A DNA stretch of 64,000 nucleotides from a candidate division FCPU426 bacterium (GTDB lineage: Bacteria > Oederibacteriota > Muellerivitia > Muellerivitales > Muellerivitaceae). Positions 381 through 46,302 of this stretch are shown piece by piece (positions within the stretch are counted from its first letter, which is position 1; every line of letters begins with the position of its first letter). The notes under the pieces were generated by a model. The model ran no database searches, had not been told where the DNA came from, and was given only the letters and a program-made list of their open reading frames with translations. The stretch lies in contig DAIDGV010000024.1 in assembly GCA_027452205.1 (NCBI GenBank), positions 30,750-94,749 of the forward strand, given 5' to 3'. Made by a program: the position numbers and the translations under genes.

Positions 381-444
381 GGAACGAGGACCCTGGACCA
401 CGATCCCTACTTGGGGATCGTGGTTTTTTTATGCCCGGATCCGC

Positions 445-765
445 TTAAAGACCCGCGGGAATCGAGGAGGGCGTATCCACCGGCGTGGGCCGGATTTCGG
501 GAGTCGGGGTCGGAGGGCTTTTGCTCTCTTCCATTTGGGATTGGTCCAAAACCTTCAGGGCCGCCGCGTCCTTGGCGGACTCGACCGGCGCGCCAATATC
601 ACCCTCTTGGGCGCCTTTGAGCCGTGTGCCATCCACATCGTCGTTGTCGTAGGAATGGTCGGCCAGGAAGGTCGGTTTGGGACCGGGGCTTAGGCTCAGG
701 TCATCTTCCGCCCAGGTAATAAGGGGCATGCCTGTCAAAAGGATCAGCAAAAGTAGGGTTCTCAT
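445..765 (-). CDS. hypothetical small secreted protein
   Basis: 106 aa with an N-terminal hydrophobic signal-like segment (MRTLLLLILLTGMPLITWAED) and an acidic/low-complexity remainder. No recognisable family. Confidence 0.4.
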   Translation of the reverse strand: MRTLLLLILLTGMPLITWAEDDLSLSPGPKPTFLADHSYDNDDVDGTRLKGAQEGDIGAPVESAKDAAALKVLDQSQMEESKSPPTPTPEIRPTPVDTPSSIPAGL

Positions 766-840
766 TCGCCATATCCTCTCAAGTCGTTCTGTTGATATTA
801 TAGTCCCGATCGACAGTTCCTCTCACATGGAGAATACCTT

Positions 841-2388
841 TTGATCCCCGAAACCATACGACGCCGTTATCCCCTTTTTCTCTTCATCGTTCTTTACCTG
901 TTGTTCACCTTTTTTACCTTCAAGGATTTCGGCGAGACCCTGGACGAGTCGGGTGTCTATCTCCGGGGGATGGGACTTCACCAACATCTGGTCCGCGATA
1001 ACTTTCCCAGTTTGGTGGTCAGGGACCCGGGCGACGACGGCGATTTTTATGACCACTTCTACGCCATGGGTTTGAACCTGTTGGATCCGGGTCTGGACCT
1101 GGACCGATACCATTTGTTGAACCTGCTGGTCGCAACAGTGCTTTTTATCGTTCTTTTCGAATCCCTTTTAAGCCAGACCCAAAGGCCCTGGCTGAGCCTG
1201 TCCGGGCCCCTTTTCTTGTTCTTCACCCCTCGTTTCACGGGGGACATCCCTGCCAATCCGAAGGATATGCCTTTCGCCCTTTTCTATTTTCTCGCCTTGA
1301 TGGGTATTTTTCATTTCTCCCGTCGTCCAAAGGCCCCGGTTCTATGGCAAGCCTTAAGCTTGGGTCTTTTGTTCGGCCTAGCCCAATCCAGCCGAGTCTT
1401 GGGCTTCACCCTTTATCCCATCTATCTTCTTTTTGACGCCCACCGGTTTTACCACGCGAAGAACCGTTCGAACCGGGAATGGGTCGCTTATTTTCTCGAA
1501 AAGACCCAGTTATTGACGCTTGTTCTGATTGTTTCTTTCTTTTGTATGGCCGTCACTTGGCCCTATCTGGGCACTAAATTCTTCGACCATTTAAGCGAGA
1601 TCCTGGCCCTTTCCACGAGCTTTTCCTGGAACAACCCGGTCCTCTTCATGGGTCAGGAGATCTCCAGCCATGCCCTGCCTTGGACTTACTTGCCGGTCTG
1701 GTTTCTGGTCACTACACCCCTCTTCCTCTTGGCCTTCCTGGGTCTCTGGTTCCTCAAACCCCTTTCGGTGCTGAAGAACGACCTGGCCCTTTTGATGGTC
1801 CTCGCGTTGGGCTTGAACCTGGTCCTCTATTTCGGACTTCACCCCGTTCTTTATGACGGGCTTCGGCACTATCTCTTCTTTCTACCGCTTCTGGCGGCGC
1901 TGGCCTCTTTGAGTTTTATCGGTCTTTTTGAGCGCGGGAACTGGAACAGCGGCGCGAAAACCTTGGTGGTCTTGGCCTTTTTGAACTTGGCCTGGGTCGG
2001 GGTTCACATGGTCCGCTTACACCCTTATGAATACGTTTATTTCAACGAATTGACGGGGGGCTTACCCGGCGCCCAGGGCCGCTTCGAGACCGATTATTGG
2101 GGGGCCAGTTTCAAGGAAGCGGTGGAATGGCTCAGGGCCAACGAGATCAAGCCCGACCGGACCTATAAGATCAACGGCAGCGGCAATTCTTATCAGATCT
2201 TCTGTTATTTCACGCCCAACATGAAATGGGTCGATGACCCCCAAAAGGCCGACTATTACCTGTCTTTCACCCGGGACAACAAGCAAAAGCTCGCGGGCCA
2301 AAGCCCGGTGCTTCATGTGGTCCAGCGGGAAGGCGTTCCTTTGAACTATGTTTTTGACATGAAAGGATCGGGAGGCAAAAAGAAATGA
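841..2388 (+). CDS. GT-C fold polytopic membrane glycosyltransferase-like protein (PMT/ArnT-like), paralog A
   Basis: 515 aa, with about 11 predicted TM segments and an acidic FDESGVY motif in the first extracytoplasmic loop, as in the DE/DD motif of GT39/GT83 enzymes. The C-terminal soluble domain carries DYWGASFKEAVEWL. Apparent TTG start at 841, preceded by GGAG. Confidence 0.6.
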   Translation: MIPETIRRRYPLFLFIVLYLLFTFFTFKDFGETLDESGVYLRGMGLHQHLVRDNFPSLVVRDPGDDGDFYDHFYAMGLNLLDPGLDLDRYHLLNLLVATVLFIVLFESLLSQTQRPWLSLSGPLFLFFTPRFTGDIPANPKDMPFALFYFLALMGIFHFSRRPKAPVLWQALSLGLLFGLAQSSRVLGFTLYPIYLLFDAHRFYHAKNRSNREWVAYFLEKTQLLTLVLIVSFFCMAVTWPYLGTKFFDHLSEILALSTSFSWNNPVLFMGQEISSHALPWTYLPVWFLVTTPLFLLAFLGLWFLKPLSVLKNDLALLMVLALGLNLVLYFGLHPVLYDGLRHYLFFLPLLAALASLSFIGLFERGNWNSGAKTLVVLAFLNLAWVGVHMVRLHPYEYVYFNELTGGLPGAQGRFETDYWGASFKEAVEWLRANEIKPDRTYKINGSGNSYQIFCYFTPNMKWVDDPQKADYYLSFTRDNKQKLAGQSPVLHVVQREGVPLNYVFDMKGSGGKKK

Positions 2389-3911
2389 GCGCTTCTCTCC
2401 GGTCCCGCTTTCCTCTGCTGCTTTTTTTATTGGTCTATTTGACCTGGAGTTTTGGCACCTTTGGCCACTATGGGATGACCTTCGATGAATCCGGGGTCTA
2501 TGTACGCGGAATGGCCCTGGGACACTCTTTCAGCCACGAGGATACCCAGATCCTTTTCAAACACGCGCCCGACGACGGCCTGGTCATCTATGACCATTTT
2601 TATCCTTATGTTCTTTCCCTGTTGAACCCCTCCGCGGATATCGACGTTTATCATTGGCTCAACACCCTCTTCGCGCTCACCGCCTTCATCCTGCTTTTCG
2701 AATTGCTCTTGGTCCGGGTCCAAAAACCCTGGCTGGCCTTGCTGGGGCCCGTCTTTTTGGCCCTGACACCCCGTTTTTTAGGGGATATCCCCGCCAATCC
2801 CAAGGACATGCCCTTCGCGGTCTTTTATCTGCTCGCCCTGGGGCTGATCTACTTTTTCCATCAAAGATCCCGCGCCGGACTTTTGGCCCAAGCCCTCTTG
2901 TTAGGCTTGGCCTTTGGCCTGGCCGAATCCAGCCGTATCCTCGGCCTGACCCTTTTCCCGGTCTATGTCCTTTTTGACCTCCACTTCCTTTGCCGGGACC
3001 CCAAACAAGGTTGGAAAGAGTGGAAAGTCCATCTGAGGGACATGATCCTGTTGCTGACCTCGGTCTTTATCGTTTCCAGTTTCTTCCTGATAGCGACTTG
3101 GCCCTACCTGGGTTCCAACTTCTTTTTACACTTCAAGGAAGCGTTGGATATTTCCAGCGACTTTTTCTGGAAAAACCCGGTCCTCTTTTTCGGCCAAGAG
3201 ATTCCCGCGGATCATCTGCCTTGGACCTATCTTCCGGTTTGGTTCCTTTTGACCACGCCTCTTTTCATCCTCTTTTTCTGCGCTACTTCTTTCTTCTTTA
3301 TCCCGAAAATGATGAAGGACCCCCTCTATATCCTGATGGGTGTGGCGGTGACCGTGAACGGCGCTTTTTACCTTTTGTTCAAGCCCGTGCTTTATGACGG
3401 CTTGCGTCATTTCCTTTTTCTATTGCCGCTCTTGGCGGCTATCGCGGCCTTATCCGCGGCCCATTGGTTCCAAAGCGCGAAAAGGAACGGATGGTTCAAG
3501 GGTCTTCTTTTCTTGTTGGTCCTCAATATGGCGCTCGTGGGAATTCACTTGGTCCGCTTGCACCCTTACGAGTACGTCTATTTCAATGAATTGACCGGAG
3601 GACTGAAGGGCTCTTTCGGAAAGTTCGATAATGATTACTGGGGCTCCAGCTTCAAGGAAGCGGTGGAATGGCTGGAGAAGAATGAGATCACCGACCCGCG
3701 CCACACCTATAAAGTGACGGGTAGCGGCAACCGGTACCAGATCCTCTACTACTTCACGCCCAACATGGTATGGGTGGATGATCTGAAGGACGCCGATTAC
3801 TACGTTTCTTACGGCCGGGACCACAAGCAGGACCTGGCGAACCCGCTTCAATTGGTCCATCTGGTCGAACGCGAAAGAGTTCCCCTCAATTACATCTATA
3901 AGTTGAAATAG
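2385..3911 (+). CDS. GT-C fold polytopic membrane glycosyltransferase-like protein, paralog B
   Basis: 508 aa, alignable with paralog A along its whole length (FDESGVYVRGM, TPRFLGDIPANPKDMPFA, VRLHPYEYVYFNELTGGL, DYWGSSFKEAVEWL). Its ATG overlaps the upstream stop (ATGA). GGGAGG Shine-Dalgarno upstream. Confidence 0.6.
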   Translation: MSASLRSRFPLLLFLLVYLTWSFGTFGHYGMTFDESGVYVRGMALGHSFSHEDTQILFKHAPDDGLVIYDHFYPYVLSLLNPSADIDVYHWLNTLFALTAFILLFELLLVRVQKPWLALLGPVFLALTPRFLGDIPANPKDMPFAVFYLLALGLIYFFHQRSRAGLLAQALLLGLAFGLAESSRILGLTLFPVYVLFDLHFLCRDPKQGWKEWKVHLRDMILLLTSVFIVSSFFLIATWPYLGSNFFLHFKEALDISSDFFWKNPVLFFGQEIPADHLPWTYLPVWFLLTTPLFILFFCATSFFFIPKMMKDPLYILMGVAVTVNGAFYLLFKPVLYDGLRHFLFLLPLLAAIAALSAAHWFQSAKRNGWFKGLLFLLVLNMALVGIHLVRLHPYEYVYFNELTGGLKGSFGKFDNDYWGSSFKEAVEWLEKNEITDPRHTYKVTGSGNRYQILYYFTPNMVWVDDLKDADYYVSYGRDHKQDLANPLQLVHLVERERVPLNYIYKLK

Positions 3912-7866: not shown

Positions 7867-9966
7867 TCAGGGCTTTGGAACGGGGCTTTTCATCGTTAAA
7901 AGCAGGTTCGGTAAGACCTGTTGTCTCTTCACCGGTGTCGGTCTTAAGTGATAGATCGCCCAGGGTCCTTGCTCATAGACCAGGTCCGTCCGGTGCTGGA
8001 TCAAATCGTCCAACTTGGCCCACTCTTCGTTCTTTAAAGGAAAGTAATCCGGGTCCTGTTCGATCAATCGTTGGCCTTCTTGTCCCGAGACCACCAGGTC
8101 GTCGATGCCCATTTCATAAAGGCGGTGATAGATCCCCTCACCGTCTTTTTCTTGACCGGCCAATTCCCTGAGGGCTTGTTGGTCATAGATCGTATTGGCG
8201 TAAAAATCCCGGCGGTAATAAAGACTGCGAGAATCCCCCACCAAAAGGATCCGGTCCCGAGGGGCGGTCACTTTCCCCACCGCCTCGGCGAGGCCATAGT
8301 AAGAAAGGGTCTGGGGATTGGTCTCCAAATATCCCGCACGGTTCTTGACCCCCAGGACCATCTGATCCCATTGGTAATAATCCACGCTTACACGCAAGAG
8401 TGAAAGGAAGCTGAGGGCGCCGAAAACCACCAGGAACCAGGACCACCATCGCACTTTGTTTTTTTCAAGCAGATCCAGGGCCAGTCCGATCTCGACCACC
8501 AACAACACGCAAGCCGGTATGGCCAGCCTCAATTGATGGGATACCGCGAAGCAAAGGAGAAGATAAGAAAGACCGGTCCAGCCCACCCAACTGGAAGAAG
8601 AGGAAGATGGCCGGGCAATGAACCAAAGGGGCACAAAAGCCAGGAGCAACGGTCCCACGGTTTTATCCAGGCTTCGGGTAAAAATTTGGACGACCCAATC
8701 ACCGAAAGAATGATCCATCACCCAGGGGCTCTCATGAGCGATCATCAATGCCTGTTCTTGTACTTTGGAAAAATACATTCCGCCGAACCATTGGGATAGA
8801 TAGGGATAAACCGGATTGCCCGTATAAGCCGCGTTCTTGAGGAACCAGGGCATCACGCACAGACCCACCAGCACGAGGGTGCCGATCCAGCGTTTCCAGG
8901 GCAGGGCAAACCCGGACCGGGCCCAGACCACGAAGCCCGCCAGCCAAACCACTCCCACCCCCAGGACAGCGGTTTGTTTAACCGTCCAAGCGGCGCCACC
9001 CATCAACCCGGCCAACATGAACCAATTCTCCCTGCCTTCGGCCATGGCTTTGCGGAGGGAATAAACGAAGAGAAGGATGAAAAAAGCTAGCACCACGTCA
9101 TTTTGGGCGGACCAGACCGTGGTCGAAAAAAGCGGCAGGAAGAGAATCGAAAGACCCGTTAAAACGCCCGTTGTTCGGCTTCCCTCTTCAGCCACCCAGG
9201 CCCCCGCGGCCAGGGACGTCCAAAAGAGGAAAAAGATATTCAAACCCTTGGCCGCTTCGGTTCCCTGCAGGACCATTCCGTTCCAAAGGTACAGTTCCGC
9301 GCCGAAAGGGAAACAGGTGAAAAAGTTGCCGGGGGCCTCGGCCAAACCGTGATGGAAACCCCAAAAACTGAGGGTCGAAAGATGATAGACCAGTCCGTCA
9401 AAATAGGTCACGGGAGTCCAGATCTGGGCCCATTCCAGGGCGATAAAACCGCAGGCCAGCGCGATCAACCAAGGAGTACTCGTGATATCCAGCTTCCACG
9501 CAAGCGTCCCCTTCAAGACCGGGTCTTCCCGCCACAGATCGACCAAAGCCCAAAGACAAAAAACCGTGACCAGTACCACATCGAAAGGACCGTTCCAAAG
9601 ACCGTTCAGCCCCGATCCCATCCAGAACAGATCGAGAAAAACCACTCCCAAGGCCGTTTCAAAACAAAAGCGGAGGACTTTCGAACCGAAGTTCAGACCC
9701 AGTAATCGCAAACCATATCGGCCCAACCGCCAAGTGGCCAAAGCCACCGAGCCGCAGACCAAGGTTGCCTTTAAAGACCCCCAAAGGTTGGAAGCCCAAA
9801 GAACTCCTTGGGCCTGTCTGAGGTCTTGGGACAGGACCGAAATAAAGGACAGGTCCAGGGAACGCGGCGAGAAATAGAGAAAAAGGGCAAAAAGACACCA
9901 AAGGGAGAATATCCAAACGCCAAAAAGGCCCAATGGCTTGCGGATGGATTCGAGGAGATTTCGCAA
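7867..9966 (-). CDS. hypothetical large polytopic membrane protein, possibly a glycosyltransferase or polymerase
   Basis: 699 aa; at least 12 hydrophobic helices followed by a C-terminal soluble domain of about 200 aa. No firm family assignment from sequence alone. Confidence 0.5.
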   Translation of the reverse strand: MRNLLESIRKPLGLFGVWIFSLWCLFALFLYFSPRSLDLSFISVLSQDLRQAQGVLWASNLWGSLKATLVCGSVALATWRLGRYGLRLLGLNFGSKVLRFCFETALGVVFLDLFWMGSGLNGLWNGPFDVVLVTVFCLWALVDLWREDPVLKGTLAWKLDITSTPWLIALACGFIALEWAQIWTPVTYFDGLVYHLSTLSFWGFHHGLAEAPGNFFTCFPFGAELYLWNGMVLQGTEAAKGLNIFFLFWTSLAAGAWVAEEGSRTTGVLTGLSILFLPLFSTTVWSAQNDVVLAFFILLFVYSLRKAMAEGRENWFMLAGLMGGAAWTVKQTAVLGVGVVWLAGFVVWARSGFALPWKRWIGTLVLVGLCVMPWFLKNAAYTGNPVYPYLSQWFGGMYFSKVQEQALMIAHESPWVMDHSFGDWVVQIFTRSLDKTVGPLLLAFVPLWFIARPSSSSSSWVGWTGLSYLLLCFAVSHQLRLAIPACVLLVVEIGLALDLLEKNKVRWWSWFLVVFGALSFLSLLRVSVDYYQWDQMVLGVKNRAGYLETNPQTLSYYGLAEAVGKVTAPRDRILLVGDSRSLYYRRDFYANTIYDQQALRELAGQEKDGEGIYHRLYEMGIDDLVVSGQEGQRLIEQDPDYFPLKNEEWAKLDDLIQHRTDLVYEQGPWAIYHLRPTPVKRQQVLPNLLLTMKSPVPKP

Positions 9967-13201: not shown

Positions 13202-13954
13202 CTACTTGGCAGTCTTTTCCGGCGGGGTCACGCCGAATTGGGCATCTACCAACGAAGCGATGACCGAATGCCCCAGGTTGTTCGGGTGCACATCCCCGTT
13301 CACGAAATATTCCGGATGGCCCATAAAGGCCGTATAGACATCGGCCACTTTCACATTGTTGGCCGCCGCCACTTCCCGGATCGACTTGTTGAATTCTTGC
13401 AAGATCCCGGCGGGTTTCATGGGTAGGCAAATACCCTTGCCGCCGTTGTTCGGATCGGGAATAGTGCAGAGCACTAGGTCGCAGTGGGGATTGAACTTCA
13501 GGATCGCTTCCACGCAGGTTTGCAGTTTGCTCTTATAGGCGGCCGCGCAAGCCATGCCCTGTTCCAGGGTGGGCGGATGGTCACAAACAATGCAAGCGCA
13601 GGAGGACTGAAGATCGCCGATCCCCACGTTCAGGACCGCGCGTTCCATGGGTCCCTTATGGGCCTGCGTGACCTTATCCAGATCCGTCTGGAGGCTCCCT
13701 TTCACGGAATCGATGGTTCCTCCCCCTTGACCGTAATTGAGCAGAGTGATATGGGGATAATACTCATCTAGGTCGCCGGCCGTCAGCGAGGCGAAGGAAT
13801 CGCTCAAAGGCATCGCCTTAGCGCCGGCGGCATAGCAGTCGCCGAATACACCGAAGACCGTGTCTTTCGGGGCGTGGCGGTAAGGCAGGGTGCCGCAGCC
13901 GGCCCCGATCAAAGCGATGGTCAACAATAGGATCGATCCGATTCTCATTTTCAT
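13202..13954 (-). CDS. SGNH/GDSL-family hydrolase lipoprotein, with Cys at the nucleophile position
   Basis: 250 aa; lipoprotein-like signal (LIGAGC). Block I reads FGDCYAAG (GDS→GDC), block II is NYGQGGGT, and block V is DGVHPNNLGH. Confidence 0.6.
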   Translation of the reverse strand: MKMRIGSILLLTIALIGAGCGTLPYRHAPKDTVFGVFGDCYAAGAKAMPLSDSFASLTAGDLDEYYPHITLLNYGQGGGTIDSVKGSLQTDLDKVTQAHKGPMERAVLNVGIGDLQSSCACIVCDHPPTLEQGMACAAAYKSKLQTCVEAILKFNPHCDLVLCTIPDPNNGGKGICLPMKPAGILQEFNKSIREVAAANNVKVADVYTAFMGHPEYFVNGDVHPNNLGHSVIASLVDAQFGVTPPEKTAK

Positions 13955-14020
13955 GGGTAACCTTTGGCAGGAATGTTCAACGAGGACTTATATTATCACT
14001 TTTCTCCGGGACACTGAAGT

Positions 14021-15040
14021 TCAAGGCCCTCCGGGCCCATAAGGTCCCCCCGGCACACGGGCATGGTCCAGGGTCCTCGCGAACTCCCGGTTGAATTTCT
14101 TCCGACCCTGGTCATTCAAGTGGGCCGGATCGGAAAAGAGCTTCCAGGAATAGATGGGGGCTTTCGGGTCCAGGATGTGGAATTGAGGGATCCTTTGTGC
14201 CGTCTGGGATAAGTAGAGTCGAAAGTCGCGGATCACTTGCGCTTTTATATGAGGCACCGAAGCCTCGTTCACGGGCATGTCCGCGAAATAGACCGGTATG
14301 CCCGCCTTCCCTAAAAGGTCCAGCGTCCTTTGAAAATAGAGGTCCACCACCGGGCTGACATGGAACCCCTGCAGTTCGGTGTCGTTGTTCAACTGCCGCG
14401 AGCCGTCCATCTGCGGGAAGGAATAGTGTCCCCGGTTTTGGACGACCAATTCCAAAGCTTCCCGGTTCTCTTTCTCACGGACGCCGTAAGGCTGGGCAAA
14501 GAACGAGGAGACCGAGTAAGAAGGGAACCCGCGGGACAGTAAGAAGGAATAAAGGTCCTGTTGGAGACCCCACAGGCCCGGGTCGGTGATGGTCAATTCT
14601 TTATCGCCCTTCTGGCGGATGTTCCCTTCGACCTCGTCGGCCTCGGGGCCGGTCAAGAGCCCGAATTTGACCGTGTTCTCCCAGTAAAAATCCGGATGGA
14701 CGAAATGGTAAGCGCTGAAAGAAAGCAATACCGCCGCCGGTTTGACCGGGGCCTTCAGGAGCTGGCGGACGAGAAAATAACTTTCAATGGGGGTACTGCC
14801 GCTCATACCGAGGTCGACCACCGTCGGCCCCAACCGATCGGGCGCCAGGTCGTTCATCACCATGGAATCGCCGAACAGCACCAGGCCCGGACGGGAATAA
14901 GTTTCGATGAGCTTTTCTTTTCCCTGGAGGATGGCGTAATCCCGGCTCAGATAAGACAAGCGGTGGTCCACCGCCCATTTCCAAACCCCGCCGAAGACCG
15001 AGGCGAAGAACAACGTGAAAACGATCAAATAGGTTCTCAT
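14021..15040 (-). CDS. DltD/AlgJ-like SGNH protein (partner of the MBOAT)
   Basis: 339 aa; N-terminal TM anchor, VLFGDSMV block I, C-terminal DPAHLNDQG block V. Immediately downstream of the MBOAT gene, as in dltBCD, algIJ and patAB. Confidence 0.65.
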   Translation of the reverse strand: MRTYLIVFTLFFASVFGGVWKWAVDHRLSYLSRDYAILQGKEKLIETYSRPGLVLFGDSMVMNDLAPDRLGPTVVDLGMSGSTPIESYFLVRQLLKAPVKPAAVLLSFSAYHFVHPDFYWENTVKFGLLTGPEADEVEGNIRQKGDKELTITDPGLWGLQQDLYSFLLSRGFPSYSVSSFFAQPYGVREKENREALELVVQNRGHYSFPQMDGSRQLNNDTELQGFHVSPVVDLYFQRTLDLLGKAGIPVYFADMPVNEASVPHIKAQVIRDFRLYLSQTAQRIPQFHILDPKAPIYSWKLFSDPAHLNDQGRKKFNREFARTLDHARVPGGPYGPGGP

Positions 15041-15051
15041 TCCCGCCCTTT

Positions 15052-16641
15052 CTAGAACTTGAAGTAAAGAAATTCACTGTTGCCGGTGATCATCAAGAGG
15101 GTCATGCTGGCCAGCAAAGCCAAAGCGAGGGCCCAGCCCCAATTGTTGCGCCAAACAAAGGATAGGACCGGCTTCTCGGCCTTGATCTTGGTCAAAGAGG
15201 CTTTCTCCGCGTCGAAAAGCTGAAGGACGTTCGGAAAGAAAAGGATGATCGCCATCCCGACCGCCAGGCTCAGCCAGCAATTGGTGAAATTCCAATAAGG
15301 CACCGTTATCCCCAGGTAATCGAGCACCGACTCGACCGGGCCCGAAAGTCCACCCACGCTGTCCCCCGTTCCCCGTCCGATCAGGGATTGGATCAGGTTC
15401 CAGGCGTCCCGCAGGTTCTTGGCGCGGAAGAAGACAAAACTGACCAGGACCGCCGTGTAGGTGAGCGCCCATTTCCAAAGGCCGTCCAAACCGCGCAACA
15501 CCGGGGAGGAAACCGTCTTTTTGGGGCCGAACCAGCGCCAGAGATGGTTCACGCTAAGATACAGGCCGTGCAGCAGGCCGAAGATCATGAATTGAAGACC
15601 CGCCCCGTGCCAGATCCCCACCAGGGTCATGGTCACCAGGGTCGGTCCCGCCAGCATCTTGAGGAATCCCTCGGCGGTGATATCGCCGGGTCTCAAAAGG
15701 CTTTTGCCTTGGGCCGCCCGGCGGCGGATGACCCAAAGGGAGATCGGGTTGTAAAGGTATAGGGTCAAATAACGGGTCAGGGAAATGTGCCAGCGCTGCC
15801 AAAAGTCGATGATGCTGCGGCTCTTGTAGGGCGAGTCGAAATTGGCTGGGAAGAAGATGTTGAACATACGGGCCAGCCCCAGGGCCATTTCCGAGTAACC
15901 GGCGAAGTCGAAATAAAGCTGGAGCGAATAACAGGCCACTCCCGCCCAGGCTTCCAGCAGGTGTTTCTCGCCCGTGTTCCGGAAGACATCCGCGGCAATG
16001 GCGGACAGGGGGTCCGCCAAAAGGACCTTTTTGGCCAACCCGAGCACGAAAATGGAAAGGCCGATGGCGATATTGTCCCAGCGGAACCGGTAGGTCTGTT
16101 TCTCGGCGAATTGGGGCATCATTTCCCGGTGATGCAGGATCGGTCCAGCGATCAGGTGCGGGAAAAAAGTCACGAAGAGCAGGTATTCTAGGAATCCCCT
16201 TTCCTTGGCGCTTCCGTCCCGAACGTCGATAAGGAACCCGATCTGCGTGAAGGTGAAAAAGGAAATACCTAGGGGCAGGATCAGGCTTCCCCAAAGCGGT
16301 CCCGCGTAAAGGGTCCGGTCATGGAACCAAGACAACAAGGCCAGCAGGTATTTGTAATAGAAGAGCGCGCCCAGGTTGGCGGTAACACCTAAAGCGAGGA
16401 TCCAGGAACAGGTCCGGGGCCTATTCCCCAGTACCTGCATGGCATAACCGCAGGCGTAATTGAAAAGAATGGAGGCCACCAACAAGATCAAGAAGACCGG
16501 CGACCACCAACCGTAGAAGAAAAGGGAAAGGAACGCCAGCCACCACTTGGCGGCGGTCTCATGGGAAAGGCCTAATAGGTAATAGACCGCCAGGGAGGCC
16601 GGGAGGAAGATGAAAAGGAAAAAAAGTGAGTTGAAAAGCAT
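15052..16641 (-). CDS. MBOAT family membrane-bound O-acyltransferase (DltB/AlgI-like)
   Basis: 529 aa polytopic protein with the MBOAT signature region (…FWQRWHISLTRYLTLYLYNP…) including the conserved His. Confidence 0.8.
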   Translation of the reverse strand: MLFNSLFFLFIFLPASLAVYYLLGLSHETAAKWWLAFLSLFFYGWWSPVFLILLVASILFNYACGYAMQVLGNRPRTCSWILALGVTANLGALFYYKYLLALLSWFHDRTLYAGPLWGSLILPLGISFFTFTQIGFLIDVRDGSAKERGFLEYLLFVTFFPHLIAGPILHHREMMPQFAEKQTYRFRWDNIAIGLSIFVLGLAKKVLLADPLSAIAADVFRNTGEKHLLEAWAGVACYSLQLYFDFAGYSEMALGLARMFNIFFPANFDSPYKSRSIIDFWQRWHISLTRYLTLYLYNPISLWVIRRRAAQGKSLLRPGDITAEGFLKMLAGPTLVTMTLVGIWHGAGLQFMIFGLLHGLYLSVNHLWRWFGPKKTVSSPVLRGLDGLWKWALTYTAVLVSFVFFRAKNLRDAWNLIQSLIGRGTGDSVGGLSGPVESVLDYLGITVPYWNFTNCWLSLAVGMAIILFFPNVLQLFDAEKASLTKIKAEKPVLSFVWRNNWGWALALALLASMTLLMITGNSEFLYFKF

Positions 16642-16662
16642 AGCGTCCTTCGGGGCCGGGGC

Positions 16663-16920
16663 TTATTTCTTCGCCGCGACCCTTTTTTCGATCAGGGCCA
16701 CGAAATCTCCCACGTTGCGCAAGGCCTCCAGCTCGGAAGCGTTGAACTTGATCCCGAACTCCATCTCCACGGCCACGATGATGTTGATATGGTTGAAGGA
16801 ATCCCAACCCTCCACGTCATCCGCGGTGGTCTCGGGCTTCAGGGTGATATCATCGTTCCCCAGCACCTGGGCAAAGATAAGGGTCAGTCGTTGAAAGATC
16901 TCGCTGCGTTCCATGGTCAT
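16663..16920 (-). CDS. acyl/peptidyl carrier protein (DltC-like)
   Basis: 85 aa acidic four-helix protein with a phosphopantetheine-attachment-like …DDVEGWDSFNHI… serine motif. Overlaps the upstream FkbH-like gene by 4 nt. Confidence 0.7.
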   Translation of the reverse strand: MTMERSEIFQRLTLIFAQVLGNDDITLKPETTADDVEGWDSFNHINIIVAVEMEFGIKFNASELEALRNVGDFVALIEKRVAAKK

Positions 16921-18869
16921 TCGCCTTTCTTCACGCGGATAAAGTGGCTGGCGGGCGGTTTTTGGCCCAGCGTCCGGGCCCAGCGGCTCTCGCCCTCAGA
17001 GACGGCCTTCAAGGTCTCGAAGCCCAAACGGGGATAATGCTCTTTCACCATGCCGTTCTTGGCCGTGGCCCGATAGACCCCGATCAACCGTTGGCCGCCC
17101 TTCTGGGCGACCTGCTCCTCTAAAAGTCCCAGCATGGCTTGCTCCACTCCCCGCCCCAGGACCCGGCAGCTCATCAGCCAGCTGTCGATCTCCCAGTCCC
17201 CCTGACCCCGGTCCAGGGCGATAAGGACACCAATGATACCATTATCCCCAAAGCGGTCGGTCAAACGGCACCACAGGGTTACCGCCTTCGGGTCTGCGGA
17301 GAAGTGCTTCACTTCCGCTTCCGTGTGCCGGCGGGTGGTTAGGTTGAATTGGTTGGTCTTATGGAGCAATTGGGCTACCCGGGGCAGATTGACCGGATCG
17401 AAAGTTCCCCAGACCAATTCCATATTGAGGCTTTTCAAATACTCCGAAAGGTCCGTGAAAGAGGCCTGGGCCTGCACGCGTTGCTGGTTTTGCCGGTACT
17501 GTTCGGTACGGGCCAGGTCATCGGATGTTACGCGGACCGACTCGAAATACCCCGCCGAGGCCAGGGTATGGATGAAAAGCGCCGGGTCTTCGGGCATTTC
17601 GGGCACCCGCACCATGGGCAGGGCCTGCCGCACTTGTTCGCGTTCAAAGGGGTTGTCGTCGACGAAGACCAGGGCGTCCAGGCCGATATTAAGTTCCTCC
17701 GCGATCTTTTTCAGGTTGGAGGCCTTGTCGTTCCAGTTGACCGCGAAACAGGCGATGTCGGTCTTTTTGAGGACCATTTCGGGATGTTTGTCGAATGGTT
17801 CCAACCCATTCGTCTCGTCGTTCTTGGAACAGACCGCCAGGATGACGCCCCGCCGGCTCAAGTCCCGGGCGTAACGTTGAAAAGCGGCGTAAGACTCGCC
17901 CAAGGCGCTGCCTTGGCCCAACCGGATGCCTTCTAAACCTTCGTCGCCGATCACGCCGCCCCAAAGGGTGTTATCCAGGTCCAGGACCAGGCATTTGGCC
18001 GACAGCCCCCGCTGGGCCGCTAAAAGCCGGGCCAGCCATTCGCCATAGAGGGGCGCGGCGGCGGGGTTTACCTCTTGTTTCGCTTTGTGCCACAGGACCG
18101 GGTCATGCCATTGGCTCAGACCGTCCACCGCGGCGCGGCCCGCGATGTCCAGCAGATCGACGGAGTTCTCGTCCGCCCAGGACCGCAGGCGCTGTTGAAA
18201 GGTTAGGAGCAGGGCCGCCGGGGAATCCGGCAGTCTTTGCTCGTTGTTGCCCATCAGGGGCTCATAAAGCGGCAGGGGCGTTTGCTGAAGGATAGGGCCC
18301 TTGAACTTTTGCCGGGCCAGCCGCCACAAGGTCACCAGTTGCTGATGGACCGCTTCCAACCGGGTTTCCGCCTCCACGGCGGTCATGCCCGGCGGCTGGG
18401 TGCCGAAAAGATGAAAGGCGTCGAAAGCGAACAAGATCGCGTTGGGGCCAAATTGATGAAGCCGGGACCGGTCGTCGGAAAGTTCCTGCAAGGCCTGGCC
18501 GTAATCGGCCACGTAAGTTTGAACGATCAGTCGGTGGCGAAGACCGCCAATGCGGATACCCGGCAAAAGCTGTTCAACGGTGGAGGACCCCAGCAAGGCC
18601 AGCCGGATCACGGGCAAACCCGGCTCGGCGGTTGAGGCGGTCTTTTCTTGGAGCGCTTTATCGGCTTGCAGGGTTTCGAGGAAGTTCAGGTCGTACCGGG
18701 CTAGGTCGGCCAGAAGGAACAAACCTTCAACCCCCTGTTTTTGTTTAGCCGCTTGGAGGGCTTTGGAAAAATACGGATGTTTGAGAAGCCAAGGCATATT
18801 CATGGGTGAAGAAGACCTCAACTGACAAGATAACGCATTATATAGGGAAAAAGGCCTTCTTCCGTTCAA
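16917..18869 (-). CDS. FkbH-like HAD-IIIC phosphatase-family protein with C-terminal GNAT-like domain (candidate carrier-protein loader)
   Basis: 650 aa. HAD motifs are LVLDLDNTLWGG (DxDxT), AVCSKN and VFVDDNP. The C-terminal region (…NGIIGVLIALD…CRVLGRGVEQAMLG…) resembles the FkbH/GNAT domain. The start codon is uncertain: TTG at 18869, or ATG at 18803/18797. Confidence 0.65.
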   Translation of the reverse strand: MNGRRPFSLYNALSCQLRSSSPMNMPWLLKHPYFSKALQAAKQKQGVEGLFLLADLARYDLNFLETLQADKALQEKTASTAEPGLPVIRLALLGSSTVEQLLPGIRIGGLRHRLIVQTYVADYGQALQELSDDRSRLHQFGPNAILFAFDAFHLFGTQPPGMTAVEAETRLEAVHQQLVTLWRLARQKFKGPILQQTPLPLYEPLMGNNEQRLPDSPAALLLTFQQRLRSWADENSVDLLDIAGRAAVDGLSQWHDPVLWHKAKQEVNPAAAPLYGEWLARLLAAQRGLSAKCLVLDLDNTLWGGVIGDEGLEGIRLGQGSALGESYAAFQRYARDLSRRGVILAVCSKNDETNGLEPFDKHPEMVLKKTDIACFAVNWNDKASNLKKIAEELNIGLDALVFVDDNPFEREQVRQALPMVRVPEMPEDPALFIHTLASAGYFESVRVTSDDLARTEQYRQNQQRVQAQASFTDLSEYLKSLNMELVWGTFDPVNLPRVAQLLHKTNQFNLTTRRHTEAEVKHFSADPKAVTLWCRLTDRFGDNGIIGVLIALDRGQGDWEIDSWLMSCRVLGRGVEQAMLGLLEEQVAQKGGQRLIGVYRATAKNGMVKEHYPRLGFETLKAVSEGESRWARTLGQKPPASHFIRVKKGE

Positions 18870-41637: not shown

Positions 41638-44600
41638 TTAAAAAAGCGAAACCTGTTTGGAATCGGGCATATTCTTGAGACATCCCGTTTCCTTAAGGAT
41701 CTCAATGACGTTCTTGTTCACCCCGCAGCGCTCCGTAATGTCCTCAATGGAGGTATAGGGGCCCTTTTGGCGATCTTCCTTGATGGATTCCGCTGCGGTC
41801 TCGCCCAACCCCGGCAAGCCGATCAGCGGTGGGCGAAGCATCTTCTCCCCGTTGGATTCCTCGACGAGGAACTGGCTACTGTCGGATTTATAGATGTCGA
41901 CCGGCAAGAATTTGAATCCTCGGGCATAGACCTCTTCCACCACATCCAGCACGGAGGCTTCGTCCAGTTCTTTGTTCGTGGGTTTTTCCAGGGAACGGAT
42001 CAATTTGATGCGGTCCTTGGTACGGCCGAGACCGCCGCAAGCCACGATCGCGTCAAAACCGAAAGCCTTATTGGTGAAATAGTCGGCGTAAAAAGCTAAG
42101 GGATGATGCACTTTGAAATAGGCGATACGGAAACTCATGATGCAATAAGCCACCGCGTGGGCTTTTGGGAAGATATATTTGATCTTCCGGCAGCTTTCGA
42201 TGTACCAGACCGGGGTCTTCACATCCTTCATGGCTTGTTCGTATTCGGGTTTAAGACCCTTGCCCTTACGCACATCCTCCATGATCTTGAAGGCCAGAGC
42301 CTCGTCCATACCCCGGCCCACGAGATCGTTCAACATATCATCCCGGGTCGAGACCACTGTGGCAATGGTGGCGGTCTTGTTCTTGATGAGGTCTTGGGCA
42401 TTGCCCAACCAAACGTCCGTACCGTGGGCCAATCCCGACAGACGCACTAAATGCTCGAACTTGGTCGGTTTGGTGTCCCTCAACATGTCCATGGCGAAAT
42501 TGGTGCCGAACTCGGGTACGCCTAAGGTACCCAGATCTTTGTCGATCTTGGTCTTGAGATTGAGGGTCGAGGTGTCGGAAAAAAGTTTCATCGTTTTTTC
42601 GTCGTTCAACGGAATGAAGATGGGATCAACGCCCGTCATGTTCTGCAGGCGCTTCAGGCTGGTCGGATTATCATGGCCGAGAATGTCGAGTTTGACCAAA
42701 CAGTCGTGCATACTGGCGTAATCGAAATGGGTCGTGACGATCTCGCCATCTTTATTGTCCGCCGGATGCTGCACCGGGCAAACGTCCGTGATCTCGATGT
42801 CTTGAGGAAGAATGACGATACCGCCCGGATGCTGACCGGTGGTTTTTGAAACCCCTGAGCAGCCCTTGACCAACCGGTTGAGTTCCGCGTTCCGGGCCTT
42901 TTTCCCTTGTTCTTCCACATATTTCTTCACAAAACCATAAGCGATCCGGTCTTGGACCGCCGAGATGGTACCCGCGCGGAAACAGTGGTCCTTGCCGAAA
43001 AGTTCTTCTACATATTTATGGGCGTGGTGCTGGTACTCGCCGGAGAAGTTCAGGTCGATATCCGGCATCTTGTCTCCCTTGAAACCCATGAAGACCTCGA
43101 ATGCGATACTGAACCCGTCCCGGATCATTTCTTTGTCGCACTTTGGACAGTTCTTGGAAGGCAGGTCCACCCCCGCAGTCGAGGCGGGTTTTTCGGGGAA
43201 CTCATGATGAAGGTCTTCCGCGCAGCGCCAATGCGGCGGCAAGGGATTGACCTCGGTAATGCCGCTCAAGAAAGCCACGAAAGAACTGCCGACGGACCCA
43301 CGGCTTCCAACGATGTATCCGTCCGACAGGGACTTGGTGACCAGCTTCATCGCGATCACATAGAGCGTCGCGAACTTGTTATTGATGATGGCATCTAATT
43401 CCTTGTTGAGACGCTTCTCAATAAAGGCCGGCAAGGTCTCGCCGTAAAGAGCATGGGCCTTGTCGATCGCGGTCTTTCGCAGCTGCTCGTCGGCCCCTTC
43501 CCAATTGGGAGATAAGGTCTTGGTGGGCAACGGCTCCACATCCTCGATCATCGCGGCGATCTTTTGCGGGTTGGTCACCACCAGCTCGTGGGTGATCTCT
43601 TCGTCGAAATAGGAAAAATCATCCTTCAGCTCATTCGTGGTCTTGAAAAAAAGCGGGGCCTGGCGTTCAATGCCGTAACCCATTCCCGCTTGCAGGATCT
43701 TGCGGTAAACCCCGTCCTGGGGTTCGATAAAATGGGAGTCACCAGTGGCCACGACCGGCTTGCCCAGCTTTTTGCCGGTCTCATAGATGACCTTGGTCAG
43801 GGATTGAAGCTCCTCCATGTCCTTGACCGTCCCGTCGGAGATCATGAACTCGTTATTGGCGCAGGGCTGGATCTCCACGTAATCGTAAAACTTCGCCACT
43901 TCTTCGATAGGTTTGGTCTTGTGCAGCAAATGCTGCCAAATCTCGCCCTGTTCGCAGGCCGACCCGACCACCAAACCTTCGCGGTGCTGTTCTAGTAAGG
44001 CCTTCGGGATCAGGGGACGTTTATAGAAGTACTTCATGTGGCTTTCAGAGACCAATTGATAAAGGTTCTTGAGGCCTGTGCGGTTCTTCACCAGAAGGAT
44101 GATGTGGTATATCTCCATGCCCCGTTCGCGCTTGAACTCATCCACGAGATAGCCTTCGATGCCCAATATCAGCTTGATCCCATGCTTTTTCGCGGCCGCC
44201 TTGGCGTCCGGATAGGCCTGGACCACCCCGTGGTCCGTAATGGCGATCGCCGGATGTCCCCATTTGGCGGCCCTTTCGATCAAGGCTTCGATCTTCGAAA
44301 GGCCGTCCATCCGGCTCATCTGCGTGTGGCAGTGAAGCTCCACCCGTTTCTCTGTAGCTGTATCCATACGGCCCGCAGGCCGTCCCACTTTAACAATATC
44401 CTTTGCCGTCAAAGTCAGCTCGTCGGCCTGGTACTTATCGAACCGAAGGTCCCCCCTCACTTTGACCCAATCCTTCTCTTTTAACCCGCCTTTGAATTTT
44501 CCGTCGTTCTCGTGAAAGAGCCGGATATCCAGCGAGTCATTGAAATCCGTGATGGTCATCTTGACCAAATGTCGTCCGCTACGGGTTTGGAACTCCTCAT

Positions 44601-45375
44601 ACAGGATGATCTCGCCCTCGACCACGTAACCATTGGCCTCGTCGGTCACGCTCATAGTCTGGGGGTCCGCGGCGATAGTGCGGCCAAAGATAAGGGTCGA
44701 AATTTGGGCCTTGGGCGCGTTCGCTTCTGCCGGTTTTTGTTCGGGTTCGGGAGGTAATTCGGGCATGACTAGGGAGTTGATCTCAAGCTTCACTTCCAGT
44801 TCGACACCACAACGGGCCCGCAGGACTTCTTTAGTGAACTTTTCACATTGGCGGCGTTCTAACTGCTGGCGGGCCAGCTCATGGGGCACTTGGATCAACA
44901 AGGTCGGCCCCTCGACCTTGAATTGATAATGGGAGAACCACCCTTCGGCGATTTCCGCATCTTCCATCAGACAAAAAACAAAATCCTTTTGATGGCAAAC
45001 CAGATAATCCGCCGGCGCCATGACCCCGGCCAAATAATGCACGTCCAGCACTACGCGGTTCACACCGGGCATACTTTCTTTTAAATGCGTGGAGACATTG
45101 GTATAGCATTCGGCGCTCACGGGCTTGGGCATACGCAACCGAAGGACCAGGATTCCCTTTTCGGGATAGATCTGGACGCCCAAAACCTCGGACTCCATGA
45201 ACTTTTCTTTTTCATGGCACTCGAGGGGGATCTGTTGAAGTAATTGGTAAAAAGGAGAGGCGGATGTTTCGGTTTCCGGGGACGACGGACTGCTGACGGG
45301 TGTCATCCTGCCTCCATCAAAGATCATGTGGGAATGGGTCAAAGGAGTGAGCGAAGTTCTTTTTGAACTATACAA
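41638..45375 (-). CDS. polC: DNA polymerase III alpha subunit, PolC-type, lacking the inserted 3'-5' exonuclease domain
   Basis: 1245 aa. An N-terminal domain plus OB fold precede the PHP domain. …VELHCHTQMSRMDG…KWGHPAIAITDHGVVQAYPDA…KKHGIKLILGIEG… is near-identical to the Firmicutes PolC PHP. The PHP region is contiguous with no DEDD exonuclease insertion. The C-terminus carries PolC-type tandem HhH (…GVNKNVIEILKETGCL…QVSLF). Confidence 0.85.
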   Translation of the reverse strand: MYSSKRTSLTPLTHSHMIFDGGRMTPVSSPSSPETETSASPFYQLLQQIPLECHEKEKFMESEVLGVQIYPEKGILVLRLRMPKPVSAECYTNVSTHLKESMPGVNRVVLDVHYLAGVMAPADYLVCHQKDFVFCLMEDAEIAEGWFSHYQFKVEGPTLLIQVPHELARQQLERRQCEKFTKEVLRARCGVELEVKLEINSLVMPELPPEPEQKPAEANAPKAQISTLIFGRTIAADPQTMSVTDEANGYVVEGEIILYEEFQTRSGRHLVKMTITDFNDSLDIRLFHENDGKFKGGLKEKDWVKVRGDLRFDKYQADELTLTAKDIVKVGRPAGRMDTATEKRVELHCHTQMSRMDGLSKIEALIERAAKWGHPAIAITDHGVVQAYPDAKAAAKKHGIKLILGIEGYLVDEFKRERGMEIYHIILLVKNRTGLKNLYQLVSESHMKYFYKRPLIPKALLEQHREGLVVGSACEQGEIWQHLLHKTKPIEEVAKFYDYVEIQPCANNEFMISDGTVKDMEELQSLTKVIYETGKKLGKPVVATGDSHFIEPQDGVYRKILQAGMGYGIERQAPLFFKTTNELKDDFSYFDEEITHELVVTNPQKIAAMIEDVEPLPTKTLSPNWEGADEQLRKTAIDKAHALYGETLPAFIEKRLNKELDAIINNKFATLYVIAMKLVTKSLSDGYIVGSRGSVGSSFVAFLSGITEVNPLPPHWRCAEDLHHEFPEKPASTAGVDLPSKNCPKCDKEMIRDGFSIAFEVFMGFKGDKMPDIDLNFSGEYQHHAHKYVEELFGKDHCFRAGTISAVQDRIAYGFVKKYVEEQGKKARNAELNRLVKGCSGVSKTTGQHPGGIVILPQDIEITDVCPVQHPADNKDGEIVTTHFDYASMHDCLVKLDILGHDNPTSLKRLQNMTGVDPIFIPLNDEKTMKLFSDTSTLNLKTKIDKDLGTLGVPEFGTNFAMDMLRDTKPTKFEHLVRLSGLAHGTDVWLGNAQDLIKNKTATIATVVSTRDDMLNDLVGRGMDEALAFKIMEDVRKGKGLKPEYEQAMKDVKTPVWYIESCRKIKYIFPKAHAVAYCIMSFRIAYFKVHHPLAFYADYFTNKAFGFDAIVACGGLGRTKDRIKLIRSLEKPTNKELDEASVLDVVEEVYARGFKFLPVDIYKSDSSQFLVEESNGEKMLRPPLIGLPGLGETAAESIKEDRQKGPYTSIEDITERCGVNKNVIEILKETGCLKNMPDSKQVSLF

Positions 45376-46290: not shown

Positions 46291-46302
46291 GTCGCTCGGT
46301 CC

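Follow-up and report, generated by a model that had tools for sequence, protein, structure and literature searches.

A tandem pair of predicted GT-C glycosyltransferase paralogs from an unnamed bacterial family in candidate phylum FCPU426

Results

Two overlapping open reading frames, here called A and B, lie on the forward strand near one end of the window, the whole 64-kb stretch of DNA that was analyzed. ORF A (positions 841–2388, 515 aa) encodes a GT-C fold glycosyltransferase paralog and opens with a TTG codon, a start that gives the protein an N-terminus in register with its homologs in the alignment; GGAG, a Shine-Dalgarno-like sequence, is found at 829–832 (forward strand), 8 nt 5′ of this codon. 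ORF B (2385–3911, 508 aa, ATG start) encodes the second GT-C fold glycosyltransferase and adjoins pth, as the single copy does in related genomes. The ATGA stop/start overlap given in the preliminary description is present on the forward strand at 2385–2388 (ATG at 2385–2387, TGA at 2386–2388), and the Shine-Dalgarno-like GGGAGG for B (2370–2375, forward strand) falls within the 3′ end of A, 9 nt 5′ of the ATG of B. A terminator-like hairpin (395–426, forward strand) lies 3′ of the upstream RND pump gene and separates it from the A–B unit, and no such hairpin stands out between A and B. Based on the overlap, the position of the Shine-Dalgarno-like site of B inside A and the distribution of hairpins, we infer that A and B are transcribed together, probably as one bicistronic unit with translational coupling.

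BLASTP aligns the two proteins end to end with one gap and 278/508 identical positions (55%; 54.7%, E 1e-168), in agreement with their earlier portrayal as tandem paralogs, alignable over their length and identical at about half of positions in the conserved blocks. Of four motifs that had been quoted for both proteins, TPRFxGDIPANPKDMPFA, VRLHPYEYVYFNELTGGL and DYWG[AS]SFKEAVEWL are indeed common to A and B, whereas FDESGVY is exact in B only and reads LDESGVY in A.

Both proteins are members of a large bacterial family that has neither a name nor a Pfam or NCBIfam model. Searches of both proteins against Pfam and NCBIfam returned nothing at E ≤ 1, and the models put forward for them in the preliminary description, PF02366, PF13231 and PF02516, match neither protein even at this threshold. 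The family comprises about 4,000 clusters at 50% identity (E ≤ 1e-30) and is distributed over many phyla, among them FCPU426, Patescibacteria, Verrucomicrobiota, Cyanobacteria and Acidobacteriota; we found no description of it in the literature. Its copy number varies, unrelated phyla repeatedly have copies in tandem or close to each other, and arrays of GT-C genes occur elsewhere, with four in a row at one locus (L088). Among 51 members of the family only 4 match PMT_2, at best with E 5.6e-7, and one homolog at 30% identity is labeled “ArnT family / GT39” by NCBI. Against PDB sequences, phmmer searches with A and B found nothing, the family profile retrieved yeast Pmt2 only (E 0.0087), and a profile of the C-terminal domain retrieved nothing relevant and no oligosaccharyltransferase (OST).

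The single-chain AF2 model of B (pLDDT 92.6, pTM 0.93) has 11 transmembrane (TM) helices, starts in the cytoplasm and ends in a periplasmic α/β domain (residues 393–508, encoded at 3561–3908 on the forward strand), the conservation of which exceeds that of the membrane helices. The long first periplasmic loop contains helices, with helix 35–50 coming after TM1. Taken together, model and conservation give A the same 11-helix architecture as B. This orientation is in keeping with a positive-inside count, the mean number of K+R being 11.3 in short cytoplasmic loops versus 3.7 in short periplasmic loops, and with conservation, which reaches 0.86 in periplasmic loop EL2 and 0.81 in EL5 against 0.22–0.36 in the cytoplasmic loops; both lines of evidence favor the earlier placement of the acidic D-E motif in the first extracytoplasmic loop. 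The predicted fold is a polytopic membrane fold in which a conserved 7-TM module at the N-terminus is followed by a variable one at the C-terminus, and extracytoplasmic loop 1 has an acidic residue with a putative catalytic role in its first helix. Structure prediction assigns A and B with confidence to the integral-membrane glycosyltransferases of the GT-C fold, class GT-CA, and so supports what had first been proposed for the fold of both proteins.

Conservation across 51 family sequences, together with the model of B, points to a candidate active site on the periplasmic side. D34, E35, D141, R184, R341 and H342 of B are invariant, and each of them maps to a periplasmic loop. D34–E35 (codons at 2484–2489, forward strand; invariant in 51/51 sequences) heads the first helix in outer loop 1 and is the putative catalytic pair of B; in A, the corresponding acidic residues of this loop, likewise putatively catalytic, are D35–E36 (codons at 943–948, forward strand). 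Two further invariant sites of B may contact the donor phosphate: R184 (2934–2936, forward strand) in the periplasmic turn between TM5 and TM6, and R341–H342 (3405–3410, forward strand) in the periplasmic loop between TM9 and TM10. These catalytic and phosphate-binding roles are assigned by positional analogy. All 20 family-invariant residues are retained in both proteins and, among the 112 columns conserved at ≥80%, A retains 108 and B 109 with conservative deviations, so that judged by their conserved residues both A and B look active.

Two other genes of the window, both on the minus strand, encode predicted GT-C proteins. The product of 7867–9966 (699 aa), previously described as a membrane protein of unknown family, is a PMT_2-type GT-C (PMT_2 E 2.4e-8); its gene heads a glmU-prs-ctc-pth string and is syntenic in relatives. 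The gene at 53480–55879 (799 aa) had been called GT-C-like, which holds, as its product matches PMT_2 (E 3.5e-7) and carries a C-terminal PA14 domain. The glmU-prs-ctc-pth string lies on the opposite strand and converges on A–B. Such a string is a widespread housekeeping arrangement, and a functional link of A–B to prs or glmU, through polyprenyl-phosphoribose or UDP-GlcNAc, is unsupported. Outside FCPU426, the Microcystis homologs overlap a GT2 gene whose product has C-terminal TM helices, like GtrB/ArnC, and GT2 genes flank other family members too. No gene for a GtrB-like GT2 or a GtrA-like flippase is present in the 64-kb window, clustering of all ORFs of 80 loci revealed no conserved neighbor outside the FCPU426 syntenic block, and three extra Pfam-annotated contexts of the family have no common partner. 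Lacking a GT2 or flippase gene in the window and a family-wide neighbor, the neighborhood leaves donor and acceptor unconstrained.

The syntenic locus, acrB-GT-C-pth-L25-prs-glmU, contains one copy of the gene in at least seven FCPU426 relatives (single-copy loci L001, L004, L006, L007, L010, L083 and L084-86). A pair occupies it only in the window, in L005 and in L081/82; in the pairs of L005 and L081 the two genes may overlap by ATGA, or otherwise are 24 nt apart. The closest orthologs of B are found in single-copy loci (P0002, 74% identity; the L001 clade, 62–65%), and no ortholog of A above 59% identity was present in the databases searched. In a neighbor-joining (NJ) tree, B groups with P0002 and the L001 clade to the exclusion of A with 100% bootstrap support; deep nodes are star-like, with 52–58% identity all round, and the tree does not support both members being orthologous among the three pairs. 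A recent duplication of B as the source of A was considered and rejected, since A is 54.7% identical to B and 56–58% to other members of the clade and the tree excludes A. Either an old duplication in tandem or the insertion of a second copy from the family probably gave rise to the pair.

Discussion

We consider it probable that A and B are two catalytically intact GT-CA paralogs that are co-transcribed. Their most likely mode of action is as separate enzymes that have diverged in acceptor, linkage or donor specificity, rather than as an obligatory heterodimer. By analogy with solved GT-CA enzymes, an Asp or Glu of loop 1 would be the catalytic base, acting on a hydroxyl group of the acceptor on the outer side of the inner membrane. 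The donor would be a polyprenyl-phosphate-linked sugar, its phosphate held by the invariant arginines of the TM5–6 and TM9–10 loops, and transfer would invert the anomeric configuration, with the acceptor bound between loop 1 and the C-terminal domain. A lipid-phosphate-sugar donor is suggested by the GT2 genes that overlap the Microcystis homologs and flank other members, in keeping with the logic of three-component systems (PMC11127046).

The preliminary description had assigned the pair to a PMT/ArnT-like family. In the model, the layout fits ALG12/ALG9 (GT22) best, rather than PMT or ArnT, and these GT22 enzymes give both the best structural match and the matching architecture (PMC13503287); the family is not specifically PMT/ArnT-like. 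ALG12 and ALG9 possess 7+4 TM helices followed by a C-terminal luminal domain; in ALG12 the catalytic base lies in the first helix of LL1, and arginines that contact the donor phosphate lie in the TM5–6 and TM9–10 loops (PMC13503287). The A/B family has the same conserved 7-TM module, four further TM helices and a C-terminal domain on the luminal/periplasmic side (PMC13503287). The first helix of loop 1 opens with an acidic pair followed by Ser, VEES in ALG12 and FDES in B, so that D34–E35 of B would occupy a position analogous to the ALG12 catalytic base E35 (PMC13503287; numbering checked), and ALG12 R185 falls in the same TM5–6 loop as R184 of B (PMC13503287). Sequence, on the other hand, offers little: ALG12/ALG9 are only about 10% identical to A/B, PF03901 (GT22) matches neither A, B nor any family member scanned, and a vertebrate ALG12 profile gives no significant match in hhalign (E 0.03, probability 1.65%). 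The sole segment that hhalign aligned pairs R341 of B with ALG12 R312 (“DGLRHFLFLLP” versus “KELRFIIYTFP”), again without significance, and the HKExRF motif of the GT22 TM9–10 loop is absent from the A/B family in its literal form, the family having the invariant R341–H342 in this loop. In terms of GT22 membership, the 7+4 TM helices and the C-terminal domain are there, whereas a PF03901 or significant profile match is not. The shared architecture, C-terminal domain and catalytic layout led us to speculate that the eukaryotic GT22 ER mannosyltransferases (ALG9/ALG12/PIG-B) have their bacterial counterpart in this family, and that a few lineages, this one among them, might additionally employ two diverged copies as a heteromer; we hold this only tentatively, as a possibility on the unlikely side. 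As A and B are bacterial proteins, the carrier would be of the undecaprenyl type and not dolichyl, and the acceptor could not be the eukaryotic N-glycan precursor. If true, a GT22 counterpart would constitute a new GT-C family in CAZy and would be relevant to how the lipid-linked glycan machinery of eukaryotes originated.

The coupling of the genes had originally been taken to suggest that A and B form a functional heterodimeric glycosyltransferase, on the premise that eukaryotic PMTs are obligate heterodimers. This premise is too broad, Pmt4 having been solved as a homodimer (9i5k), although GT-C heterodimers are known from the structures of Pmt1-Pmt2 (6p25) and EmbA-EmbB (7bvf). The ATGA overlap makes co-translation likely, both partners are intact, as in Pmt1-Pmt2, and two further lineages have a tandem pair in the same locus, possibly with an ATGA overlap too. 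Against these points, the pair is not co-conserved in related genomes, an outcome that the preliminary description had itself named as refuting: the loci of the closest orthologs of B and four more syntenic loci have a single copy, A has no ortholog above the 59% level, and the NJ tree does not relate both members of the three pairs as orthologs. Ordinarily a single gene serves in this family, its product working as a monomer or homodimer. Because most related genomes have one copy, an obligatory two-protein enzyme is unlikely, and we give a heterodimer in the manner of Pmt1-Pmt2 or EmbA-EmbB a low probability.

We regard as improbable in still greater degree that A and B act like the oligosaccharyltransferases STT3/PglB/AglB, which would imply transfer of a preassembled glycan from a polyprenyl-diphosphate carrier to protein. 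The top Foldseek matches are STT3A/STT3B (E 1e-6 to 1e-5), and “DYWG” at the start of the C-terminal domain recalls WWDYG. However, the model of B has 11 TM helices and not 13, PF02516 is not matched, and the GT2 genes beside the Microcystis homologs point to a monophosphate-monosaccharide donor. Only the Y of DYWG is in a column conserved at ≥90%, the W lying outside such columns; homology of DYWG to WWDYG is unsupported, given this pattern of conservation and the failure of the C-terminal-domain profile to retrieve an OST from the PDB. Least credible of all is that one copy is a redundant duplicate drifting to loss, or a non-catalytic GT-C-fold scaffold like PIG-U/GAB1, for while A forms an orphan branch without close orthologs and most relatives dispense with a second copy, both ORFs are full length, neither protein has lost an invariant residue or departs from the conserved columns other than conservatively, and from their common node the branch of A is no longer than that of B.

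Enzymes of the GT-C class modify envelopes, lipids and surface proteins at the outer face of the membrane; to our knowledge, most bacterial GT-C families have no known substrate, and we know of no cultured member of candidate phylum FCPU426. With four GT-C genes within 64 kb, the envelope in this phylum is suggested to be heavily glycosylated. We read A and B as ordinary members of a known enzyme class from an uncharacterized family, and their tandem arrangement as one that paralog expansion ordinarily produces. A widespread family that is invisible to Pfam and NCBIfam can nonetheless be assigned to GT-CA by structure prediction, and its likely catalytic residues can be named.

Comparison with PMT (GT39; PF02366, PF13231) shows that the D-E motif of loop 1 is also present in A/B, and as this motif is common to other GT-CA families it does not discriminate PMT. 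The only sequence-level links of the family point to PMT and ArnT (GT83), namely the PMT_2 matches and the Pmt2 profile match; hhalign against the profile of the window's own PMT_2-type GT-C was not significant (E 0.063). PMTs contain a luminal MIR domain between late TM helices, whereas A and B show no Pfam match to MIR and the model of B has only a 43-residue loop 4 and the C-terminal α/β domain. ArnT is reported to have 13 TM helices, compared with 11 in the model of B.

Gtr-type three-component systems of periplasmic glycosylation combine a GtrA flippase, a GtrB GT2 synthase and a GT-C transferase, and GT136 is also placed with them. In such systems a membrane GT2 makes the polyprenyl-phosphate monosaccharide that the GT-C is expected to use (PMC11127046), and the Microcystis homologs overlap a GT2 gene of this kind; A–B differ in having no GT2 or flippase gene alongside or anywhere in the window. 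The mycobacterial EmbA-EmbB resemble A–B as adjacent paralogous GT-C genes in one operon that follow a polyprenyl-phosphate-sugar logic. Tight coupling of two paralogs is also what would be expected of a heteromer and, with the adjacent paralogs EmbA-EmbB solved as a heterodimer, it counts against the reading of A and B as separate enzymes. The Emb proteins differ from A and B in their length of about 1,050–1,090 residues and in their carbohydrate-binding modules (PMC11127046), and the A–B pair is missing from most close relatives.

Gene organization of the tandem pair

ORF A (positions 841-2388, forward strand) begins with TTG and encodes 515 aa, and ORF B (2385-3911, forward strand) begins with ATG and encodes 508 aa. 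Their products align end to end in BLASTP, with one gap and 278/508 identical residues (55%, E 1e-168). At the junction (...AAGAAATGAGC...) the TGA of A (2386-2388) is overlapped by the ATG of B (2385-2387), confirming the tandem, overlapping paralogs of the preliminary description. The motifs quoted there were all present, except that FDESGVY reads LDESGVY in A. GGGAGG lies 9 nt 5' of the ATG of B and GGAG 8 nt 5' of the TTG of A, and the N-terminus that this TTG gives to A agrees with those of homologs. A terminator-like hairpin (395-426) is located 3' of the upstream RND pump gene; the A-B boundary has no hairpin comparable to it, and the convergent pth gene has its stop one base beyond the end of B. 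The coupling of A and B is operon-like. Divergent from A is a 106-aa ORF (445-765, reverse strand) with a signal peptide-like N-terminus and no Pfam match; among homologous loci in other genomes, L083 and L084-86 have a similar-sized counterpart there, and L001, L005, and L081 do not.

Predicted fold, topology, and conserved residues

A and B matched no Pfam-A or NCBIfam model even at E ≤ 1, including PF02366, PF13231, and PF02516, and no PDB sequence. With the profile of an alignment of 51 family members, yeast Pmt2 was the only contact in the PDB (E 0.0087), and 4 of the 51 members reached PMT_2 (best E 5.6e-7). An AlphaFold2 model of B built from this alignment has a mean pLDDT of 92.6 and a pTM of 0.93, and its Foldseek matches in the PDB at ranks 1 to 24 are all GT-C enzymes (STT3A/B, ALG12, Pmt4, PglB, DPY19, Emb, and AftA). 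Pairwise structural scores were 26.0 for ALG12, 23.2 for ArnT, 22.8 for Pmt4, 21.7 for AglB, 20.3 for Pmt2, and 20.0 for STT3B, at sequence identities of 9 to 15%. For the predicted GT-C fold the modeled structure is decisive, sequence searches being nearly mute. The earlier PMT/ArnT-like GT-C assignment thus stands as to fold, on the model and Foldseek, and falls as to PMT/ArnT membership, on the Pfam result.

From the B model together with hydropathy, 11 TM helices are predicted. Across the family, Lys+Arg averages 11.3 in the short loops assigned to the cytoplasmic side versus 3.7 in those assigned to the periplasmic side, which places the N-terminus inside and the long first loop (28-97) and the C-terminal domain (393-508) outside. 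Family conservation agrees with this placement, at 0.86 in periplasmic loop EL2, 0.81 in EL5, and 0.60 in the C-terminal domain versus 0.22 to 0.36 in cytoplasmic loops, and the acidic first loop is extracytoplasmic as proposed earlier. Every invariant polar residue (B numbering: D34, E35, Y39, Y73, H90, D141, R184, R341, H342, Y397, and Y399) is on the periplasmic side, so that the conserved acidic and basic residues face outward. Both A and B keep 20/20 invariant residues, and 108/112 (A) and 109/112 (B) of the columns conserved at ≥80%; judged by alignment, neither looks degenerate. The single-copy ortholog of one FCPU426 MAG (L010, 8001-9514) aligns as two pieces with ∼30 residues missing near 350-378, perhaps reflecting a frameshift, pseudogenization, or an error of assembly.

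Family distribution and gene neighborhoods

A word-indexed search returned 316 relatives, all labeled hypothetical. When 1.84 billion cluster representatives were searched exhaustively with the profile, 3,954 passed E ≤ 1e-30 and 11,051 passed E ≤ 1e-3, and a genome scan gave at least 563 family loci; the family is large and is not modeled by current sequence libraries. MAGs of candidate division FCPU426 supply the nearest relatives; other members occur in Patescibacteria (Roizmanbacteria, WWE3, and Saccharibacteria), Puniceicoccaceae, Microcystis, Waterburya, and Acidobacteriota. A Thalassobacterium homolog (30% identical) is named 'ArnT family glycosyltransferase / glycosyltransferase family 39 protein' by NCBI.

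Clustering the ORFs of 80 loci, with three further Pfam-annotated contexts, revealed no family-wide conserved neighbor. In Microcystis, the 3' end of the family member is overlapped by a downstream GT2 gene with C-terminal TM helices, GtrB/ArnC-like (M. ichthyoblabe L056, 7932-10588; also L054, L055, and L070), and GT2 genes flank several other members. This fits the periplasmic glycosylation logic of a GT2 synthase plus a GT-C transferase (PMC11127046). The Microcystis overlap is the best available clue to polyprenyl-phosphate sugar use by the family and indicates a tractable organism for experiments. No GtrB/ArnC-like GT2 gene lies within the 64-kb window.

The window encodes two further GT-C proteins. 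The 699-aa product of 7867-9966 (reverse strand), previously of 'unknown family', matches PMT_2 (E 2.4e-8), has a sub-threshold LIC_10190_fam match, and resembles DUF8201; its gene lies immediately 5' of glmU-prs-ctc-pth, shares their strand, and is found in synteny in every FCPU426 relative. The 799-aa product of 53480-55879 (reverse strand), already noted as GT-C-like, matches PMT_2 (E 3.5e-7) and has a C-terminal PA14 domain, possibly a carbohydrate-binding module; its gene adjoins sucCD-like genes. Elsewhere on the reverse strand, a GDSL-like hydrolase, a DUF1574-like protein, and an MBOAT acyltransferase in series (13202-18869) look like a set O-acetylating an exported polysaccharide, followed by a 650-aa ORF of no family with weak FkbH/NIF hints only. 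Another tandem paralog pair, adjacent DUF1207 proteins of 271 and 278 aa (45475-47139, reverse strand), sits beside a GT4 glycosyltransferase. A PolC-type DNA polymerase III with polC N-terminal domains (41638-45375, reverse strand) and a GT9 heptosyltransferase-like protein (51392-52285, forward strand) place a Gram-positive-type replicase and an LPS-type enzyme in one genome, an unusual combination.

Copy number and origin of the pair

FCPU426 relatives share a syntenic locus in the order RND pump - GT-C - pth - L25 - prs - glmU - 699-aa GT-C. One family copy occupies this locus in L001, L004, L006, L007, L010, L083 (protein P0002, the closest ortholog of B, 74%), and L084-86 (P0004, 65%); only the window, L005, and L081/L082 have two tandem copies. 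The pair is not conserved across relatives. The preliminary description had read the coupled genes as a heterodimeric glycosyltransferase, for which EmbA-EmbB and Pmt1-Pmt2 are precedents; co-conservation, the test that it had itself proposed, fails at these mostly single-copy loci, and we consider a heterodimer improbable.

A bootstrapped NJ tree joins B to P0002 and to the L001 clade, each at 100%, and leaves A outside. A is 53 to 58% identical to every relative, with no ortholog above 59% in the databases searched, and at 54.7% is no nearer to B than to other clade members; A therefore did not arise by recent duplication of B. The two members within the L005 pair, and within the L081 pair, are equally diverged (51-53%). 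Deep nodes are star-like, making an ancient duplication with several losses indistinguishable from repeated gains. Whichever the origin, the pth-adjacent copy works alone in most genomes. Loci of Patescibacteria, cyanobacteria, and verrucomicrobia likewise contain tandem or nearby copies, and one metagenomic contig (L088, 5332-12073) has four consecutive GT-C genes (PMT_2, family member, PMT_2, and PMT); arrays of paralogs are therefore usual in enzymes of this class. The L088 array is followed by GT4, methyltransferase, and DUF2298 genes. A and B are GT-C glycosyltransferase paralogs, ordinary in kind: the preliminary observation was correct and its interpretation partly so.

Proposed mechanism and comparison with known GT-C enzymes

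We propose that A and B act independently, with diverged specificity. D34/E35 would serve as catalytic base and R184 and R341 as phosphate ligands, in a putatively inverting transfer from a polyprenyl-phosphate monosaccharide to an acceptor bound between loop 1 and the C-terminal domain.

DYWG (3633-3644, B residues 417-420; likewise in A) opens the C-terminal periplasmic domain. It recalls WWDYG of STT3/PglB/AglB, with only its Tyr conserved at ≥90% in the family, and a search for a sequence link of the motif or domain to OSTs found none. OST-like enzymes are unlikely, given 11 TM helices in the model, absence of WWDYG itself, and no match to PF02516.

A 2026 paper on the structures of ALG3/9/12 describes the GT-CA class as combining a conserved module of 7 TM helices with a variable one, the catalytic base being located in luminal loop 1, on its first helix; ALG9 and ALG12 have four more TM helices and a luminal domain at the C-terminus, and chicken ALG12 uses E35 as base and binds the donor phosphate through R67, R185 (TM5-6 loop), and R312 (TM9-10 loop) (PMC13503287). 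The 9s6t_A sequence confirms this numbering (E35, first E of KVEESF; R185 in VFRSEL; R312 in HKELRF). In the A/B family, FD34E35S opens the first loop-1 helix, as does ALG12 E35; the TM5-6 turn contains invariant R184 (cf. R185) and the TM9-10 loop invariant R341-H342 (cf. R312), and the 11 TM helices in total and C-terminal α/β domain resemble ALG9 and ALG12. Profile comparison by hhalign was not significant with ALG12 (E 0.12) or a vertebrate ALG12 profile (E 0.03, probability 1.65%); the sole segment aligned, itself not significant, pairs DGLR341HFLFLLP with KELR312FIIYTFP. A comparison with the profile of the window's own PMT_2-type GT-C was as weak (E 0.063). Given matching landmarks with a non-significant sequence link, we place A and B in the GT-CA class as enzymes belonging to a separate sequence family, nearest in architecture to GT22; they are not members of PMT, ArnT, GT22, or OST.
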